Virus record (IMG/VR): IMGVR_UViG_3300044729_001198
Coordinates: 64,001-128,000 of that record
DNA length: 64,000 bases
Origin: a virus
Direction: 5' to 3' (one strand)
This document shows, piece after piece, positions 967 to 42,767 of this stretch. The translations under genes and the position numbers were made by a program. Below the pieces are notes generated by a model. It searched no databases and had not been told where the DNA came from. It worked only from the letters and a program-made list of their open reading frames with translations. Each line of letters opens with the position of its first letter. The first letter of the stretch is position 1.

Positions 967-1007
967 AATTTATTTGTTTTTATTTGGTTTTAATAATTAG
1001 TGTTGGG

Positions 1008-1370
1008 TTAAAAAAATTTATTATCCGAACCATCACCCAACATACTTTTGATGATATCTGATATAGCCTTACCTTCTTCAGTAGCCCTATAACCAAGCTG
1101 ACCATTTTCGTCAATATGCATTTGAATCAATCCATGGTCGGACAAGTAGTCTACGATAGTATTGAATTGCCAGTCTCTATAGTCATTTAAGCAATCCAAT
1201 AATATAATGGTTAATCGTGTATTTTCATTTGCGTCATATAATCGTTGTTCTAAAAACTCAAGGAACTTAAATCGGTCATCGATTTGATTTAGTTTGTAAA
1301 AGTTTTCGTTCTCCAATAAAAGAACTACCTTTGCTACCATTTCTTGAAACTCATCTGGCTCCCAACTCAT
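1008..1370 (-). CDS. hypothetical protein
   Basis: 120-aa acidic ORF. Confidence 0.6.
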   Translation of the reverse strand: MSWEPDEFQEMVAKVVLLLENENFYKLNQIDDRFKFLEFLEQRLYDANENTRLTIILLDCLNDYRDWQFNTIVDYLSDHGLIQMHIDENGQLGYRATEEGKAISDIIKSMLGDGSDNKFF

Positions 1371-2568: not shown

Positions 2569-2587
2569 AATTTCTTTTATTTTTTTG

Positions 2588-2660
2588 TGGACCTGGTAGG
2601 ATTTGAACCTACGACCAACTGATTATGAGTCAGCTGCTCTGACCGCTGAGCTACAGGTCC
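2588..2660 (-). tRNA. tRNA-Ile2 (CAT, lysidine type)
   Basis: GGACCTG acceptor, CTGA-CTCATAA-TCAG anticodon arm, TTCAAAT T-loop; resembles ileX-type rather than Met tRNAs; CCA not encoded. Confidence 0.85.
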
Positions 2661-9536: not shown

Positions 9537-9557
9537 AACTTTTTATTTTTGATAATA

Positions 9558-9589
9558 CAAATATACGAAATAATTTTCAAATAAACAAA
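9558..9589 (-). promoter_or_regulatory. Bacteroidota-type promoter
   Basis: TTTG-N20-TATATTTG. Confidence 0.75.
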
Positions 9590-10322: not shown

Positions 10323-10384
10323 ATATCTTAAAAATTCTTTCATAGATAAATCCTTTACAATAAATAGTAAAAATTATTTTGTAG

Positions 10385-10455
10385 TTACCCCTCAAGGACT
10401 CGAACCTCGATTAACTGGACCAAAACCAGTTGTCCTGCCATTAGACGAAAGGGTA
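10385..10455 (-). tRNA. tRNA-Gln (TTG)
   Basis: ACTGG-TTTTGGT-CCAGT anticodon arm, TTCGAGT T-loop. Confidence 0.9.
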
Positions 10456-10481
10456 ATATATCAATGTAGTTCGGTTAGTAA

Positions 10482-10784
10482 TTATCCTTTTAAAATTTCT
10501 TGTTTGTTTGTGATTTTGTTTTCAAACTTATCAAACCGTGAATCAATATAACGATAAATCTCATTGACATGATTTTCACTTGTGTTATGAAGCGTGTCAA
10601 CATAATTCATAGTTTCTTTTTCTTTTTGAATAACAGTTTTAAATATTTCAGCAAGTGTACCATCCGTGTCCATAACATCAGACTCCAACTGCTTTACCGA
10701 TTTTCTCAACTGAAACACGACTACAATCATTCCAACATAGAACATTGTAACCGCACCCCAACCGAACGCAATAATTGTTTCCAT
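10482..10784 (-). CDS. N-terminal TM plus coiled-coil protein
   Basis: Hydrophobic N-terminus, AGGAG upstream. Confidence 0.6.
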   Translation of the reverse strand: METIIAFGWGAVTMFYVGMIVVVFQLRKSVKQLESDVMDTDGTLAEIFKTVIQKEKETMNYVDTLHNTSENHVNEIYRYIDSRFDKFENKITNKQEILKG

Positions 10785-10877
10785 AATTTTCTCCTAATTT
10801 AAAGAACTACATTGATATAGATAGACTCGGGCCTAGCGAGCCGCCAAAGCGGAAAGGCCCTTTTTAAAGTCTATTTG

Positions 10878-10949
10878 TTGCGGGGGGCGGACTCGAACCA
10901 CCGACCTCAAGGTTATGAGCCTTGCAAGCTACCACTGCTCTACCCCACA
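10878..10949 (-). tRNA. tRNA-fMet (CAT), initiator-like
   Basis: TGTGGGG..GAGCAG..GGCTCATAACC..CCCCGCAA; only two of the three G-C pairs in anticodon stem and U1:A72. Confidence 0.8.
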
Positions 10950-10955
10950 ATGTTG

Positions 10956-11028
10956 AGCGAAAGAGGAGATTCGAACTCCCGACCCTCACCTTGGCAAGGT
11001 GATGCTCTACCAACTGAGCTACTTTCGC
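10956..11028 (-). tRNA. tRNA-Gly (GCC)
   Basis: Canonical cloverleaf GCGAAAG...CTTTCGC-T. Confidence 0.95.
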
Positions 11029-11031
11029 AAT

Positions 11032-11215
11032 TGTAATATCTTATCTCCGGTTTTTACTTATGGTTTGTTCCCCATAACCTGTTGACGTGCACATCAGAGC
11101 AGGGACCTGAACATAGTCTACTGAGCCGTTTCCAAACTTCCGATTTGTGGTTGCGACCCACTTGGAAGTCAGTAGTCCTTTCAGAGAAGCGATATCTCCT
11201 TATGTAGATATTACA
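11032..11215 (-). ncRNA. candidate structured RNA between tRNA genes
   Basis: Perfect 10-bp closing inverted repeat (11032-41/11206-15) plus nested helices; no family recognised. Confidence 0.5.
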
Positions 11216-11218
11216 TTG

Positions 11219-11290
11219 AGCGGAGAGGTGGTTCTGCCCCACCATCTCTCATCTGGTTGATGAGTGAGTTTCTCTAAACTCCTCCTCCGC
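11219..11290 (-). ncRNA. non-canonical tRNA-Gly-like RNA, copy 1
   Basis: 72-nt cloverleaf; loop CAACCAG, T-loop GGCAGAA, GCG/CGC-U acceptor. Confidence 0.8.
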
Positions 11291-11295
11291 GTTGT

Positions 11296-11368
11296 AGGTA
11301 TGAATCTCCGGTAACACTCGAATTAGATTCACTGCAGGCGGTTTCATTCCTGTCTTCAATTCATACCT
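11296..11368 (-). ncRNA. candidate stem-closed spacer RNA
   Basis: Perfect 10-bp inverted repeat AGGTATGAAT/ATTCATACCT filling the tRNA spacer. Confidence 0.35.
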
Positions 11369-11444
11369 TGGAGCCACCAGAGGGACTCGAACCCCCGACC
11401 TACTGATTACAAATCAGTAGCTCTACCAACTGAGCTATGGTGGC
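11369..11444 (-). tRNA. tRNA-Thr (TGT)
   Basis: Canonical cloverleaf with encoded CCA. Confidence 0.95.
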
Positions 11445-11516
11445 TTTTGAGAGGGGTGTTTTAGTGAGTGCTAACTTACCCCCCTCGGTGGGCTAGACTC
11501 AGCAGTTACTCGGCGA

Positions 11517-11666
11517 TTACTCGGCGCTAGTTGTGTCTACAACAGCGGTAGTATCTACAACAGCAGTCGTGTCAACGGCAGTAGAATCTACTGAAGTCTC
11601 TTCGGTTGAAGTTGAGCAAGATACCAAAGCCAAGGTAGCTACGAAAGCAAACAATACTTGTTTCAT
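11517..11666 (-). CDS. 49-aa lipoprotein with VDTTA repeats
   Basis: MKQVLFAFVATLALVSC lipobox then STSTEETSVDSTAVDTTAVVDTTAVVDTTSAE; not in ORF track. Confidence 0.8.
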   Translation of the reverse strand: MKQVLFAFVATLALVSCSTSTEETSVDSTAVDTTAVVDTTAVVDTTSAE

Positions 11667-11712
11667 GGTTCGTTTCTCATTATTAAGGTTAAACATATGT
11701 GAACTAAATTTG

Positions 11713-11784
11713 AGCGGAGAGTTGGAACTGCCCCAACACCTCTTATCTGGTTGATAAGCGACTTTCTTTTAAGTCTTTCCCCGC
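11713..11784 (-). ncRNA. non-canonical tRNA-Gly-like RNA, copy 2
   Basis: 72-nt cloverleaf; same CAACCAG loop, T-loop GGCAGTT, compensatory stem changes versus copy 1. Confidence 0.8.
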
Positions 11785-11794
11785 GATTGTTTAA

Positions 11795-11826
11795 CAAATA
11801 TACGAAATAAATTTCATATTGCCAAA
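11795..11826 (-). promoter_or_regulatory. Bacteroidota-type promoter
   Basis: TTTG-N20-TATATTTG directly upstream of Gly-like copy 2. Confidence 0.75.
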
Positions 11827-11834
11827 TCTTTTTT

Positions 11835-11860
11835 AAAAAAACCCCGACCTAGCTCGGGAT
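11835..11860 (-). terminator. intrinsic terminator after tRNA-Ser
   Basis: CCCGA-GCTAGG-TCGGG followed by a T run. Confidence 0.6.
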
Positions 11861-11873
11861 AACACATCGGATG

Positions 11874-11960
11874 CGGAGGCTCAGGGATTCGAACCCCGGT
11901 TACAATTTCTCGTAAAGCAGTTTTCAAGACTGCCGCATTCGACCGCTCTGCCAAACCTCC
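11874..11960 (-). tRNA. tRNA-Ser (TGA)
   Basis: GGAGGTT acceptor, long variable arm, G73. Confidence 0.95.
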
Positions 11961-12066
11961 GTGTTTTATCATTTGTTTTTTTCTTGATAGGTAGCCAATA
12001 AGTACGCTGATACAATCATAAAAGCTACAATACCCAACCCAATTAAAAATGATTCCATGATGTATA

Positions 12067-12288
12067 CTATAAATTGTAGTCTGTAAAATTAGAACGTAAC
12101 ACTTCCAATTTATCACTAGCATTAGCCATTTGTTCAACGAGAGTATCAAGCTCTTCAGTATGTTGTGGATGTTCTCCAATGGCTACGGGTGATTCAAAGT
12201 AAATACTAATTCTTGCGCGAGCGTCCAAAATCTCGGCTGTGTATTTTGCCTCAAGGGCTTGGAACAATTGTTTTGAAATTCTGCTCAT
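12067..12288 (-). CDS. conserved phage hypothetical protein
   Basis: 73 aa, VAIGEHP motif. Confidence 0.65.
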   Translation of the reverse strand: MSRISKQLFQALEAKYTAEILDARARISIYFESPVAIGEHPQHTEELDTLVEQMANASDKLEVLRSNFTDYNL

Positions 12289-12334
12289 AACTTTAGTTTA
12301 ATATAAATAGGTTTACCAACATTAATAAAATTAG

Positions 12335-12406
12335 TAGTCCGTGCGGGAATCGAACCCGCCTTTTATCCGTGAAAGGGATATGTCCTAACCGATAGACGAA
12401 CGGACC
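12335..12406 (-). tRNA. tRNA-Glu (TTC)
   Basis: Cloverleaf with CTTTCAC loop. Confidence 0.9.
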
Positions 12407-12563
12407 AAGTTGACTACGAGAGCACGTTGTTCTTTGCACCTCTTTGATATTCCCCGTGGTTAGTCAAACCAGATATAAATTTGTTATATCAGCAGTTCCA
12501 TATGAGGTATCACCCCACTTCTCATCGTATTGGACATACTATTCGGTGATGAACCGAACCGTG

Positions 12564-12693
12564 TAGTCAGGACAGGAATCGAACCTGTATGTCAACCTCT
12601 ACGACAGAGCTGTTCTTATTAACCGTGGCCAGCGGGTTTATTACAGTTGTAGTTGACTATCTATGTAGCGTCTACCAATTCCGCCACCTGACT
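12564..12693 (-). ncRNA. tRNA-Leu-like scaffold with 78-nt insert, copy 1
   Basis: AGTCAGG/CCTGACT acceptor, Leu-type D-arm, TTCGATT T-loop; no normal anticodon arm. Confidence 0.8.
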
Positions 12694-12793
12694 AAATAAA
12701 TTGGAGTAAGACCCTCTACTACTGGACCAATTGTAGTCGCTGGATTTAAACTTAACCTATTACGTAGTGTTTCCAAAACCTACCACCAATTTG

Positions 12794-12915
12794 AAGTCAG
12801 GACAGGATTGTGAACCTGTATTTAAACGGAGGTGTTTTTACACTGCGTTTAATTTCTAACTGTGTTTTCACATACAGTAGTTGTAGAAGCGTCTATACTT
12901 TTCCGCCACCTGACT
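12794..12915 (-). ncRNA. tRNA-Leu-like scaffold with 68-nt insert, copy 2
   Basis: Same acceptor stem; D-loop lacks GG, 8-nt T-loop TTCACAAT. Confidence 0.7.
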
Positions 12916-12918
12916 ATT

Positions 12919-12986
12919 AAATAATTCTGTGTTGGCCAACTAAGCACGTACCTGCACCAGATACTTTTTATGCATCAGAATTATTT
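12919..12986 (-). ncRNA. candidate stem-closed spacer RNA
   Basis: Perfect 11-bp inverted repeat AAATAATTCTG/CAGAATTATTT. Confidence 0.3.
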
Positions 12987-12987
12987 G

Positions 12988-13112
12988 CAGTCAGGACAGG
13001 ATTCGAACCTGCAATTGTGGATTTCAAAGAAGGACTCGTATGGGTTTTTTCCATTCCACACCCACGATAATACTATCCTTTCTTATTGCGTCTACCATTC
13101 CGCCACCTGACT
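12988..13112 (-). ncRNA. tRNA-Leu-like scaffold with 74-nt insert, copy 3
   Basis: Same acceptor stem, Leu-type D-arm, TTCGAAT T-loop, long hairpin insert. Confidence 0.8.
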
Positions 13113-13193
13113 AAATAGTGGAGCGTCATTTATTTCTAAATTATCCACTTCGGTTACGTTATCTTTCGATAAGAGGCTTTACCGAGCCCAATG

Positions 13194-13267
13194 TATCCCC
13201 GATTGGATTCGAACCAATGACCTACGCATTAGAAGTGCGTTGCTCTATCCAGCTGAGCTACGGAGAC
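13194..13267 (-). tRNA. tRNA-Arg (TCT)
   Basis: Canonical cloverleaf. Confidence 0.95.
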
Positions 13268-13309
13268 GTTTTAATAACAATGTCAAAGAACTATATGTGA
13301 GTTTCCGTG

Positions 13310-13395
13310 TACCGCCTGCCGGAATCGAACCGGCACGGACATCGCTGTCCGAGGGATTTTAAGTCCCTTGTGTCTACCTGTTTCACCAAGGCGGC
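13310..13395 (-). tRNA. tRNA-Leu (TAA)
   Basis: Canonical class II cloverleaf, AGGGA-CTTAAAA-TCCCT. Confidence 0.95.
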
Positions 13396-13405
13396 ATCTT
13401 GTATA

Positions 13406-13437
13406 CAAATATACGAAATAAGTATGAGATTGCCAAA
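13406..13437 (-). promoter_or_regulatory. Bacteroidota-type promoter of tRNA operon
   Basis: TTTG-N20-TATATTTG about 10 nt before tRNA-Leu. Confidence 0.8.
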
Positions 13438-14620: not shown

Positions 14621-14639
14621 GTGTTTCTTATTTACTTTG

Positions 14640-14671
14640 TAAAGATACGAAATAATTTTGACATTGCCAAA
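14640..14671 (-). promoter_or_regulatory. Bacteroidota-type promoter
   Basis: TTTG-N20-TATCTTTA. Confidence 0.7.
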
Positions 14672-25294: not shown

Positions 25295-25379
25295 CTCTGG
25301 AACCCTTATTCCCGTTGAGTTCCAGAGCCCCGTGTTATTATTTAGCTATTTTTTTTTATATAATAGCACCCGCACAGTA

Positions 25380-25411
25380 CAAATATACGAAATAATATGC
25401 AACTTGCCAAA
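25380..25411 (-). promoter_or_regulatory. Bacteroidota-type promoter upstream of a hairpin, no ORF
   Basis: TTTG-N20-TATATTTG; CTCTGGAAC/GTTCCAGAG stem about 55-85 nt downstream. Confidence 0.6.
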
Positions 25412-29634: not shown

Positions 29635-29752
29635 TTTTTTAAATTTATTTATACAAATATACGAAATTATTTTGAATTTTCCAAATCATTTTGAGAACCA
29701 CTTGGTTCTGATGCGGGGACGTAATCATCCCAATATACAAATACCCAACTCA

Positions 29753-34769: not shown

Positions 34770-34823
34770 AACTTTCCTTTAATTTTAACAAATATACGAA
34801 ATTAATTTGACATATCCAAACAT

Positions 34824-41426: not shown

Positions 41427-41447
41427 TACAAATATACGAATTAAATT

Positions 41448-42767
41448 TTATATTTCCAACTTTGGAGTAGACGATTTGAAATCTTTTTTTCTCATGATAG
41501 TTTTGGCAATTGCCTTGTTGGCTTGTTTCATAAACGGAATGTTGATGTTGGTTCTATCATCGGTAGCTACCATTTGTTCGTATTTCTCAAGAAACTCGAC
41601 AAATTGTTTTTTATGTTTTGATAATCTCTTAAAGAACCCAATCAATTCAGCTTGTGAGATTTCTTTACCATTTCTTGGGTCATTAAGTCTATCAAAGAAA
41701 TGTTTGTCAGTAAGAACTACATCCAATGGATTTAAAAACTTATCAGCAACTCTATCGATGTCTTTCAAATCATCCATAGGGATTTCGTTGATTACACTCT
41801 CACTTGCGCCTGTTTTTGAGAACGTGGGTTTTTGACCTTTCTTTTGTTCGCCACCCTTTTTAGCATCACCCGATTTCTTTTGGTCTGCTCTTTTTCTTCT
41901 TACAAATGCGGCTCTACCATCAGGTCCAAGTTTTGCAGCTTTTTCTTTTGATAAACAAGCAGCATATGCATCTCCATCATCACCATCACCACACTTACCT
42001 AACCTTTGACCATCAGTTCCATATCTATCCCAACCACCACCATCGTTTGAGCCGGTTTTACCTTTACCAAACCAATTTCTTAAATCTTCTTTTAGTTCTT
42101 GGGATTCATTCTTTTTTTTACCTTGACAATGTGCTTTTTGAGAAAACCCTTTTGGATTATTACAATCTATGGAGCGTTTGTATTTCTCACTCCAATCCTC
42201 ATTACGAGCTTTACTTGCTTCAATGGCTTGTAATTGATTCAAAGCATCTTCATATGTGTCATGAGTACCAAGTCTATCACCACCTGATTTTGGGTATACA
42301 ACATACTTACCATCTACTTTTTCAATACGTTCAAACATACCCTTTGTATTGATTTTTCTCCAACCACCACCGGGCATATTAAACAATCTTGCTGGGATTG
42401 GTAGGATTGCTCCTACTTTTAACATCGGATGTTTAACTGGCGTGTGAATTAAACGAGTAAGATACATTCGAGTTTTATTATCAACACCATACAATTCAAC
42501 CTCAACCTCAATCTTTTGATTTGATATTTTGATTGGACCTTTGTACAAACCTTTTGTAGGACCTTCGTTTAAAGTAGACTCGGTAATTTCAGCATCCATG
42601 TATTTTTTATACAACATCATTAAAAATGGTATAAGGTCGTGAACCATCTTTTGTTTTTCAGCTTGATTATTTTTTGATACTATAACCTTGTCAGTAGCGC
42701 TGGGTGGATTATGTACTGCGTTTACAGCTTGTCTTTGTATTTGCCGCTTAGTAACTCGTAATGCCAT
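41448..42767 (-). CDS. modular, probably head-associated phage protein
   Basis: Short modules separated by LNE/RNE/LKE/INE; KYKRSIDCNNPKGFSQKAHC; HFFDRLND. Confidence 0.65.
   Translation of the reverse strand: MALRVTKRQIQRQAVNAVHNPPSATDKVIVSKNNQAEKQKMVHDLIPFLMMLYKKYMDAEITESTLNEGPTKGLYKGPIKISNQKIEVEVELYGVDNKTRMYLTRLIHTPVKHPMLKVGAILPIPARLFNMPGGGWRKINTKGMFERIEKVDGKYVVYPKSGGDRLGTHDTYEDALNQLQAIEASKARNEDWSEKYKRSIDCNNPKGFSQKAHCQGKKKNESQELKEDLRNWFGKGKTGSNDGGGWDRYGTDGQRLGKCGDGDDGDAYAACLSKEKAAKLGPDGRAAFVRRKRADQKKSGDAKKGGEQKKGQKPTFSKTGASESVINEIPMDDLKDIDRVADKFLNPLDVVLTDKHFFDRLNDPRNGKEISQAELIGFFKRLSKHKKQFVEFLEKYEQMVATDDRTNINIPFMKQANKAIAKTIMRKKDFKSSTPKLEI

Follow-up and report, generated by a model that had tools for sequence, protein, structure and literature searches.

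The DNA analyzed here (hereafter the window) comprises 64,000 bases, from 64001 to 128000, of a viral record of 186,631 bp (IMGVR_UViG_3300044729_001198, here G000) which is estimated to be 98% complete. It belongs to a T4-like myovirus, a lake phage in which a gp43-type DNA polymerase, a tail sheath, a baseplate wedge and a portal protein have been found; GroEL and thymidylate synthase are also encoded within the window. The G+C content of the window is ~36%, and its minus strand carries nearly all genes. Based on the polymerase (polB), the closest isolate is the Microcystis phage Mel-JY01, with only 48.6% identity, and near-identical DNA is present in many metagenomes of lake, freshwater and estuary origin. 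Eight of the nine tRNA genes of the window are gathered in a cluster (Table 1) which also contains two RNAs resembling tRNA-Gly, designated type A and type B. These two RNAs are the subject of the present analysis and are proposed below to serve DNA-modifying enzymes of the Mom family.

Two 72-nt cloverleaves had been described at this locus in an initial annotation made from the sequence alone. Both are confirmed on the minus strand, at the positions given there, as minimum free energy (MFE) folds (type B, −31.5 kcal/mol, z = −4.4; type A, −26.1 kcal/mol, z = −3.5). None of 200 shuffled sequences folds as well as either element, and folding of the plus strand is worse. Type A consists of the acceptor GCGGGGA with its 3′ strand, U73, a 5-bp D stem with the loop AAAAGA, a 6-bp "anticodon" stem with the loop AACCA, and a T arm with the stem GUUGG/CCAAC and the loop GGCAGUU. 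Type B is built on the acceptor GCGGAGG with its 3′ strand and U73, carries the same loop AACCA closed by C32–G38, and has the T stem GGUGG/CCACC with the loop GGCAGAA. The two RNAs are 83% identical and, as the annotation had claimed, their stems covary, the differences being compensatory in all four. The other features it had listed, namely the loop CAACCAG, the T loop GGCAG, A8, AG in the D loop, the pairs G1–C72, C2–G71 and G3–C70, and U73, are likewise found in both copies.

The canonical tRNA-Gly(GCC) of the same cluster provides an internal comparator, with normal D, T and anticodon loops and a T stem predicted to bind EF-Tu tightly. With canonical tRNA-Gly (RF00005), both elements share a 7-bp acceptor with a GCG/CGC top, U73, an NCC-A loop, G19, C56, G53–C61 and a 4-nt variable region, in addition to their location in a tRNA cluster. 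The acceptor top, U73 and the trailer CAA which follows U73 are exactly those of the phage tRNA-Gly(GCC), and neither element encodes CCA. However, they depart from canonical tRNA-Gly in lacking U33, G18, T54–Ψ55 and U8–A14, and in having a 5-nt loop and a T stem predicted to bind EF-Tu weakly. Neither is called by ARAGORN under default settings and no Rfam family matches either of them, RF00005 included at E ≤ 10, while the nine true tRNAs score 54–78 bits.

A covariance model built from both window copies and two relatives, followed by three pattern scans of viral contigs, retrieved ~95 copies in ~55 contigs. In metagenome contigs, a pattern based on the RNA alone matched at least 80 loci, 71 of those listed holding 91 further copies, which raises the family total above 180 copies, spread over ~125 viral or metagenome contigs. 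Among the 53 distinct viral sequences, 99.6% of cells are paired and 14 of 22 pairs are changed on both sides, a result equaled by none of 500 shuffles. For the 79 distinct metagenome sequences among the matches listed, 98.7% of cells are paired and 19 of 23 pairs are compensatory, compared with 39–49% pairing in slid controls. The covariance-model search which had been recommended in the annotation has thus uncovered a conserved family with strong covariation; this family is large, far beyond chance, and missed by Rfam and by current tRNA finders. A few relatives are called by ARAGORN, only at 80% thresholds.

Within the T4-like clade, the RNAs nearly always occur in pairs, type A upstream and type B downstream, separated by 4–5 nt or by 68–490 nt. 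Type A has the T stem GUUGG and mostly the loop CAUCCAG, and type B the T stem GGUGG and mostly the loop CUUCCAG, with UUACCAA or CAACCAG also present. Near-identical copies of type B were found in three contigs (L006, L011 and L013), 7 nt upstream of tRNA-Gly(GCC). Comparison of the tandem pair by blastn with 50,697 phage records returned no match. Searches with R1/R2 of Mel-JY01, Mu, Polaribacter phage P12002L and Synechococcus phage S-SCSM2R also returned nothing, a weak negative as these searches had no RNA positive control. Across 185,579 cellular species genomes, a strict pattern gave no match and a looser one gave 97 stretches, among which the contig L150, discussed below, is the only real one of the 80 examined.

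The positions which are conserved across the family are those expected of a substrate of glycyl-tRNA synthetase (GlyRS). Among the metagenome sequences listed, in which the search pattern left these positions free, G1–C72 and C2–G71 are each present in 78 of 78 and G3–C70 in 77 of 79, the other two having C3–G70; U73, which was not fixed by the pattern either, is found in all of them. C35, C36 and A37 occur in every copy retrieved by the scan fixing only the D and T loops, and likewise in every copy found via Mom instead of via the RNA. The assignment of a GlyRS identity set (G1–C72, C2–G71, G3–C70, U73, C35 and C36) in the initial annotation is therefore upheld for both copies, all six elements being conserved family-wide and matching known determinants of glycylation (PMC7826273).

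The remainder of the loop is free to change. Every loop contains a glycine anticodon NCC, and the variants encountered include CAUCCAG, CUUCCAG, UUACCAA, CUACCAG and CGCCCAG, so that CAACCAG is not invariant as had been thought. Position 33 can be any base (A 30, U 17, G 1 and C 1 in 49 distinct viral sequences) and position 34 is U or A, or C in GC-rich lineages. Positions 32 and 38 covary as Watson–Crick pairs (CG 59, UA 13, AU 5, GC 1), from which it follows that six base pairs close a 5-nt loop, NNCCA, in this arm. Covariation also fixes the register of the stem, and on this ground an alternative in which the loop presents a shifted CCA anticodon, that of Trp, was rejected. Similarly, Watson–Crick covariation between positions 14 and 21 (UA 40, CG 37) indicates a 5-bp D stem, and the proposal that A8/U14 replaces the U8/A14 tertiary pair is therefore unsupported, position 14 being paired with position 21 across the family. 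The D loop reads xA(G/A)AGA, that is A18 G19, and the T loop GGC(A/G)G; G19 and C56 are the only elbow residues retained. Judging from these sequences, the G19–C56 pair could survive, and G18–Ψ55 and T54–A58 cannot form.

Phage tRNA variants which neutralize tRNA-targeting defenses are known. It had been suggested that the two RNAs act as GlyRS sinks or as decoys for anticodon nucleases and, more broadly, they might serve as GlyRS sponges or as baits for defenses directed at tRNA, such as anticodon nucleases, or GNAT or nucleotidyl-transferase toxins acting on Gly-tRNA. Their tRNA-like shape and glycine identity would suit such a role. However, a bait for anticodon nucleases should keep the target loop, which is here 5 nt long with positions 32–34 and 38 varying freely, and no defense or toxin partner was found. 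Neither suggestion gained support, and we regard this explanation as the least probable of those considered here, and a highly improbable one.

The same loop bears on the principal alternative, which is that the RNAs are extra, oddly built tRNA-Gly genes which work in translation and raise the supply of Gly-tRNA for GGN codons, Mom simply sharing this pool. Their position in a tRNA cluster, their tRNA-like spacing (4–5 nt between tandem copies in relatives) and the NCC anticodon of all loops are in favor of this possibility, as is the fact that an ACC anticodon could pair with GGU, which makes up 66% of the glycine codons of the phage. Many type B copies have U33–UCC, and ARAGORN recognizes some relatives adjacent to Mom as tRNA-Gly genes, in which CCA is encoded. 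Against it, the Watson–Crick covariation of positions 32 and 38 leaves a 5-nt loop, position 33 is mostly A with any base possible, and G18 and T54–Ψ55 are absent, with no match to RF00005 as mentioned above. Moreover, a canonical tRNA-Gly(GCC) coexists with these RNAs, joined in one contig (L089) by a tRNA-Gly(UCC). On balance, we consider ordinary decoding unlikely.

A further indication comes from the T stem. The affinity of tRNA for EF-Tu is set by the first three T-stem pairs, and glycine requires a tightly binding tRNA body (PMC3239215; PMC7826273). Using Table 2 of PMC3239215, binding free energies were calculated, not measured, from the pairs 49–65, 50–64 and 51–63. Both window elements yield −9.5 kcal/mol (GC/UA/UA and GC/GC/UA), as do 51 of 58 distinct family sequences, the remaining ones giving −8.1 or −9.7 kcal/mol. 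The tRNA-Gly(GCC) of the window reaches −11.0 kcal/mol, and those of other members of the clade −10.1 to −11.2 kcal/mol. In bacteria, the quoted mean for glycine tRNAs is −10.8 kcal/mol (PMC7826273). The T stem thus predicts weak binding of the elements by EF-Tu. A T stem 1.2–1.7 kcal/mol weaker than that of most tRNA-Gly(GCC) from the same phages argues against a decoding tRNA, as glycine needs a tight body. Besides, some members of the clade (L296/L298, from G050, L089 and L090) hold a single non-canonical element together with a normal-looking tRNA-Gly(UCC) whose T stem (GC, GU, UA) has a predicted free energy of −8.1 kcal/mol, that is very weak; this tRNA could represent an intermediate stage or an additional donor.

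As a possible partner of these RNAs, a Fem- or MprF-like transferase had been suggested in the initial annotation. In the 98%-complete genome, FemAB (PF02388) and Acetyltransf_6 (PF13480) are absent, the L/F-transferase and LysPGS families having been left out of this search; three GNAT proteins of the Mom family (PF25680) are encoded instead. The lead to Mom came from L150, a contig binned with a Methanosarcinales metagenome-assembled genome, in which a member of the RNA family lies at the 3′ end of a Mom-family frame. This RNA (positions 975–1046, plus strand) has A73 in place of U73 and the loop UUUCCAA, and is located inside a 3′ extension of the Mom frame, beside a primase-like gene. A73 is the discriminator base of archaeal and eukaryotic tRNA-Gly. 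The search for proteins related to the Mom of L150 gave none among viral or metagenome contigs, so that the archaeal idea rests on one contig with a putative binning.

In the phage genome, the three Mom genes are located around the DNA polymerase gene, outside the window. They match Pfam with 158.8, 154.6 and 118.3 bits (E = 1.8e-46, 3.5e-45 and 4.7e-34), above the cut-off of 27.1 bits. All RNA-bearing records which are at least 90% complete encode two or three Mom genes (10 of 10, that is 8 of 8 plus G000 and G007), and the same holds for three less complete RNA-bearing records (G030, 87%; G049, 84%; G002, 70%). Conversely, a record of the same clade (G051; polB 75% identical, 93% complete) lacks both Mom and the element, and none of its four tRNAs is a tRNA-Gly. 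Mel-JY01 also lacks Mom in a protein search in which both positive controls, Mu and P12002L, match.

Physical linkage extends this association to other lineages. Of the 71 metagenome loci retrieved with the RNA pattern only, 22 of those listed have a same-strand Mom gene abutting the RNA, which usually lies 20–120 nt past the Mom domain; GC-rich lineages with CCC loops are included, and one locus has the order helicase, primase, Mom, RNA, DNA methylase, terminase. A similar adjacency is seen in L041, L065, L336 and L150. When starting from the Mom protein, a tRNA-Gly or Gly-like gene is found directly beside Mom in 10 of 80 viral loci, and the same-strand tRNA or tRNA-like gene directly following Mom is of the glycine type in nine of ten loci (nine detected by a relaxed ARAGORN scan and L336 by the RNA model). 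Taken together, these data connect the RNA family with Mom to a degree which common descent would not account for. Such adjacency in unrelated lineages is unexpected for a plain decoder, and decoys or sinks leave the physical coupling to Mom genes unexplained. In one lineage (L333, L334, L341, L343, L344, L346 and L360), a normal tRNA-Ala(UGC) ends 12 nt before Mom (positions ~2913–2988, or 207–282 in L333), and Mom is in addition followed by a tRNA-Gly-like gene in L334; the tRNA-Ala may reflect chance within a tRNA array or Mom relatives using another aminoacyl-tRNA.

Linkage of this kind also raises the possibility of a cis- or trans-acting element which regulates or processes the Mom module, for instance a tRNA-shaped RNase P/Z site, an mRNA 3′ stabilizer or a device sensing how far glycyl-tRNA is charged. 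The element is indeed at or within the 3′ end of the Mom frame in many lineages (L150, L388), the Dehalococcoides element described below is inside a mom gene (PMC3146451), and Mu mom is under special translational control by Com (database annotation). Nevertheless, members of the T4-like clade carry the RNAs tens of kb away from Mom, in a tRNA cluster and behind a putative promoter of their own. A processing signal would have no need for conserved C35, C36, U73 and first three acceptor pairs, and the pairing of type A with type B has been kept over wide divergence. A regulatory or processing function thus appears improbable, even more so than ordinary decoding.

The chemistry of Mom has been elucidated for the phage Mu enzyme, which transfers glycine from Gly-tRNAGly to the N6 of adenine in double-stranded DNA, the product rearranging to a carbamoylmethyl base (Silva et al., 2026, PMC13219725; preprint 10.1101/2023.03.24.534169). 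The carbamoylmethyl form blocks restriction enzymes, R111 and S124 are essential, every E. coli tRNAGly isoacceptor can be used, and mischarged Gly-tRNAAla fails as a donor (PMC13219725). This last result fits the tRNA-Gly acceptor end conserved in the RNAs described here. Like the Mu enzyme, the three Mom proteins of this phage are above the Pfam cut-off and keep both R111 and S124. In contrast to Mu, which has no tRNA genes and uses any host isoacceptor, these phages have two or three Mom paralogs and one or two special RNAs per genome. Glycyl transfer to DNA, and with it 6-NcmdA, is known only for Mu Mom with E. coli tRNAGly (PMC13219725). Phage-encoded or Mom-linked tRNAs are not mentioned in PMC13219725, and such a link was not found in the other literature searched.

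We propose, with a probability of roughly 60%, that the two RNAs are phage-encoded, non-translating derivatives of tRNA-Gly which act as dedicated glycyl carriers for the Mom-family DNA-modifying enzymes of the phage. This proposal combines the structure, conservation and genomic linkage observed here with published knowledge of the Mu Mom reaction and of the T-stem rule for EF-Tu; we infer from them that the RNAs are expressed and processed, receive CCA, become charged and are used by these Mom paralogs. It retains from the initial annotation the idea of a chargeable, non-decoding glycyl donor, favored by the identity set, the degenerate decoding features and the predicted weak binding to EF-Tu, and replaces the Fem transferase with Mom. 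As a broader proposition, Mom enzymes in many phage lineages would be two-part systems, made of the enzyme and of its own RNA cofactor derived from tRNA-Gly, charged by host GlyRS and invisible to EF-Tu and to the ribosome, and the virus would thereby possess an orthogonal route for glycine reserved for the chemical disguise of its DNA; for this extension, we see the chances as even. The type A and type B pair and the two to three Mom paralogs might correspond to matched carrier–enzyme pairs with different DNA targets.

Regarding the production of these RNAs, a 33-nt phage promoter-like consensus, TTTGGCAAT-N7-TTATTTCGTATATTTGT, ends 9 nt before the 5′ end of type A, and the tRNA with which the cluster begins, tRNA-Leu, is preceded by the same motif at the same distance. 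It is also sigma-70-like (10/12 match), and eight matches with at most three mismatches are present in the window, all on the gene strand, when none is expected by chance. The copy preceding type A probably starts a unit comprising, in this order, the type A RNA, a small open reading frame (ORF), tRNA-Thr, the type B RNA, freshwater-1 RNA and tRNA-Gly. A terminator-like hairpin followed by a U run, detected by a consensus scan only, is located directly after tRNA-Ser and would separate the upstream tRNA unit from the unit headed by type A. Together, the motif and the hairpin preceding it suggest that type A is transcribed as the head of a tRNA-type unit.

Table 1. Features of the locus. Positions refer to the window, except for those with the prefix G000:C1, which lie outside it.
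Feature	Position	Strand	Detection	Remarks
tRNA cluster	10384-13395	minus	ARAGORN, Rfam	8 of the 9 tRNA genes of the window
tRNA-Met	2587-2660			ninth tRNA, outside the cluster
tRNA-Gly(GCC)	10955-11028	minus	ARAGORN; Rfam 71.8 bits	canonical
freshwater-1 RNA (RF02979)	11052-11113	minus	Rfam, 74.3 bits	
Type B tRNA-Gly-like RNA	11290->11219	minus	MFE cloverleaf; R1 99.4 bits, R2 88.8 bits	first cloverleaf of the initial annotation
49-codon ORF	11517-11666	minus		between type A and tRNA-Thr
Type A tRNA-Gly-like RNA	11784->11713	minus	MFE cloverleaf; R1 97.9 bits, R2 92.8 bits	second cloverleaf of the initial annotation
Promoter-like consensus, 33 nt	11794-11826	minus		precedes type A
All sites of the 33-nt motif	9557-9589, 11794-11826, 13405-13437, 14639-14671, 25379-25411, 29653-29685, 34788-34820, 41428-41460	minus		
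Terminator-like hairpin and U run	11841-11860	minus	consensus scan	
Three paralogous ~140-nt units	12556-12702, 12786-12924, 12980-13121	minus		
Three Mom-family GNAT genes (PF25680)	G000:C1:143926-144780, 145327-146082, 138967-139578	minus	Pfam	around the DNA polymerase gene
Genes beside Mom	G000:C1:137038-138228, 146271-146705, 146730-147962			

The following pathway can be envisioned for the dedicated glycyl carriers. The RNAs, whose sequence context suggests transcription from a phage promoter along with the tRNA cluster, would have their ends cut like those of a tRNA, and CCA would be added by a host enzyme, as none is encoded. Since the full bacterial identity set is kept, host GlyRS would then charge them with glycine. 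No CCA-adding enzyme was found in G000 and no phage GlyRS alpha subunit in seven records; the host would therefore have to supply both activities. The charged RNAs would stay out of translation because of their 6-bp stem and 5-nt loop with a free position 33, their D and T loops devoid of G18 and T54–Ψ55, and their weak EF-Tu T stem. Finally, the three Mom paralogs, encoded ~63–70 kb away, would move the glycyl group to the N6 of adenine in phage DNA, which would then adopt the carbamoylmethyl form, as demonstrated for Mu Mom (PMC13219725) and presumed for the present proteins. With a carrier reserved for them, the Mom enzymes would leave the Gly-tRNA pool to translation and need not compete with EF-Tu, as is achieved for Fem transferases by the non-proteogenic (NP) tRNAGly of staphylococci.

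These NP1–NP3 tRNAGly of S. aureus and S. epidermidis, which donate glycine to FmhB, FemA and FemB (PMC7826273), are an instructive parallel. Like the phage RNAs, they keep the GlyRS identity set and have a weak EF-Tu T stem (−9.6/−9.7 kcal/mol, close to the −9.5 kcal/mol calculated here), and the further likeness we propose is that a GNAT-fold transferase acting off the ribosome receives its glycine from a dedicated source. They differ in being encoded by the cell, with a Fem partner and peptidoglycan as acceptor, instead of being encoded by a phage devoid of Fem genes, with Mom and DNA. The phage RNAs have been altered further, with a 5-nt loop closed by a 32–38 pair, any base at position 33, a GGCAG T loop and a 5-bp D stem. 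As these NP tRNAs form a lineage reportedly confined to staphylococci, the phage RNAs are a parallel to it and not a member.

Another precedent is provided by the ssrA islands of Dehalococcoides, in which a conserved tRNA-Gly-like "pseudo-tRNA" has been reported inside a mom homologue, with no function proposed, at a time when Mom was considered a methylase-like protein (McMurdie et al., 2011, PMC3146451). Compared by description only, it resembles the Mom-adjacent members of the phage family in joining a tRNA-Gly-like cloverleaf to mom. It differs in its size (76 bp), its location in the 5′ part of the gene and its bacterial island context, and it was recorded as a conserved locus and primer site.

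Several observations weigh against the dedicated-carrier proposal. First, the chemistry of Mom can do without a private carrier, since all E. coli tRNAGly work and neither Mu nor P12002L yielded an element. Second, some type B copies have a normal-looking U33–UCC loop, and some Mom-adjacent relatives possess a canonical TTCGATT T loop and an encoded CCA, and may still decode. Third, the EF-Tu rule has been measured on tRNAs with normal T loops and may not carry over to these RNAs. Fourth, in this genome the RNAs sit in a tRNA cluster, 63–70 kb from the Mom genes, and part of the co-occurrence within the T4-like clade could reflect shared ancestry, G051 being the only negative internal to the clade. 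Finally, contigs from four metatranscriptome runs cover the neighboring tRNAs and the region 11046–11216 and leave both elements uncovered, although, as contigs only, they are evidence neither way.

Other features of the region deserve mention. The freshwater-1 RNA occupies most of the spacer (11032–11215) between type B and tRNA-Gly(GCC). Two estuary metatranscriptomes cover 11046–11216, with word depths of 47 and 127, and in L011 and L013 the spacer with freshwater-1 is missing, the element being 7 nt from the tRNA. The 49-codon ORF encodes a signal peptide-like sequence with a lipobox (..LVSC) followed by Thr/Val/Asp repeats, that is a small lipoprotein-like gene within a tRNA unit. Three paralogous ~140-nt units of the window are all missed by default ARAGORN and Rfam. 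Each combines an acceptor stem resembling that of a tRNA with a D arm of class-II type (GGCGGAAUUGGUAGACGC) and a normal T arm (GGUUCGAUUCC), and has a ~75-nt central insert which replaces the anticodon and variable arms. They are covered by RNA contigs, some of which skip 76–78 nt; this could be due to splicing or to the tRNAs of other organisms. The three genes beside Mom code for a DruA-domain protein (PF14236, E = 1.3e-24), a pyrophosphohydrolase resembling MazG and a protein resembling flavin amine oxidases; a similarity between the DruA-domain protein and Mom was rejected, the profile comparison giving a probability of 4%.

Should the proposed function be correct, these RNAs would be the first virus-encoded, dedicated and translation-orthogonal aminoacyl carriers for DNA modification. 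The staphylococcal Fem system, the one well-studied precedent for "non-proteogenic" tRNAs, concerns cell-wall synthesis in a single bacterial genus; the present RNAs would extend it to the phage–host arms race and to phages which are abundant in the sea and in fresh water. They would also answer a question raised by the work on Mom, that is how Gly-tRNA can be heavily used late in infection without starving translation, and would offer a natural set of substrates for mapping the tRNA recognition of Mom. Their design, that of charged tRNAs which are not translated, would be relevant to genetic-code engineering. An RNA family is thereby defined which Rfam and current tRNA finders miss, and which may serve as a genomic marker to predict adenine-hypermodified phage DNA in metagenomes.

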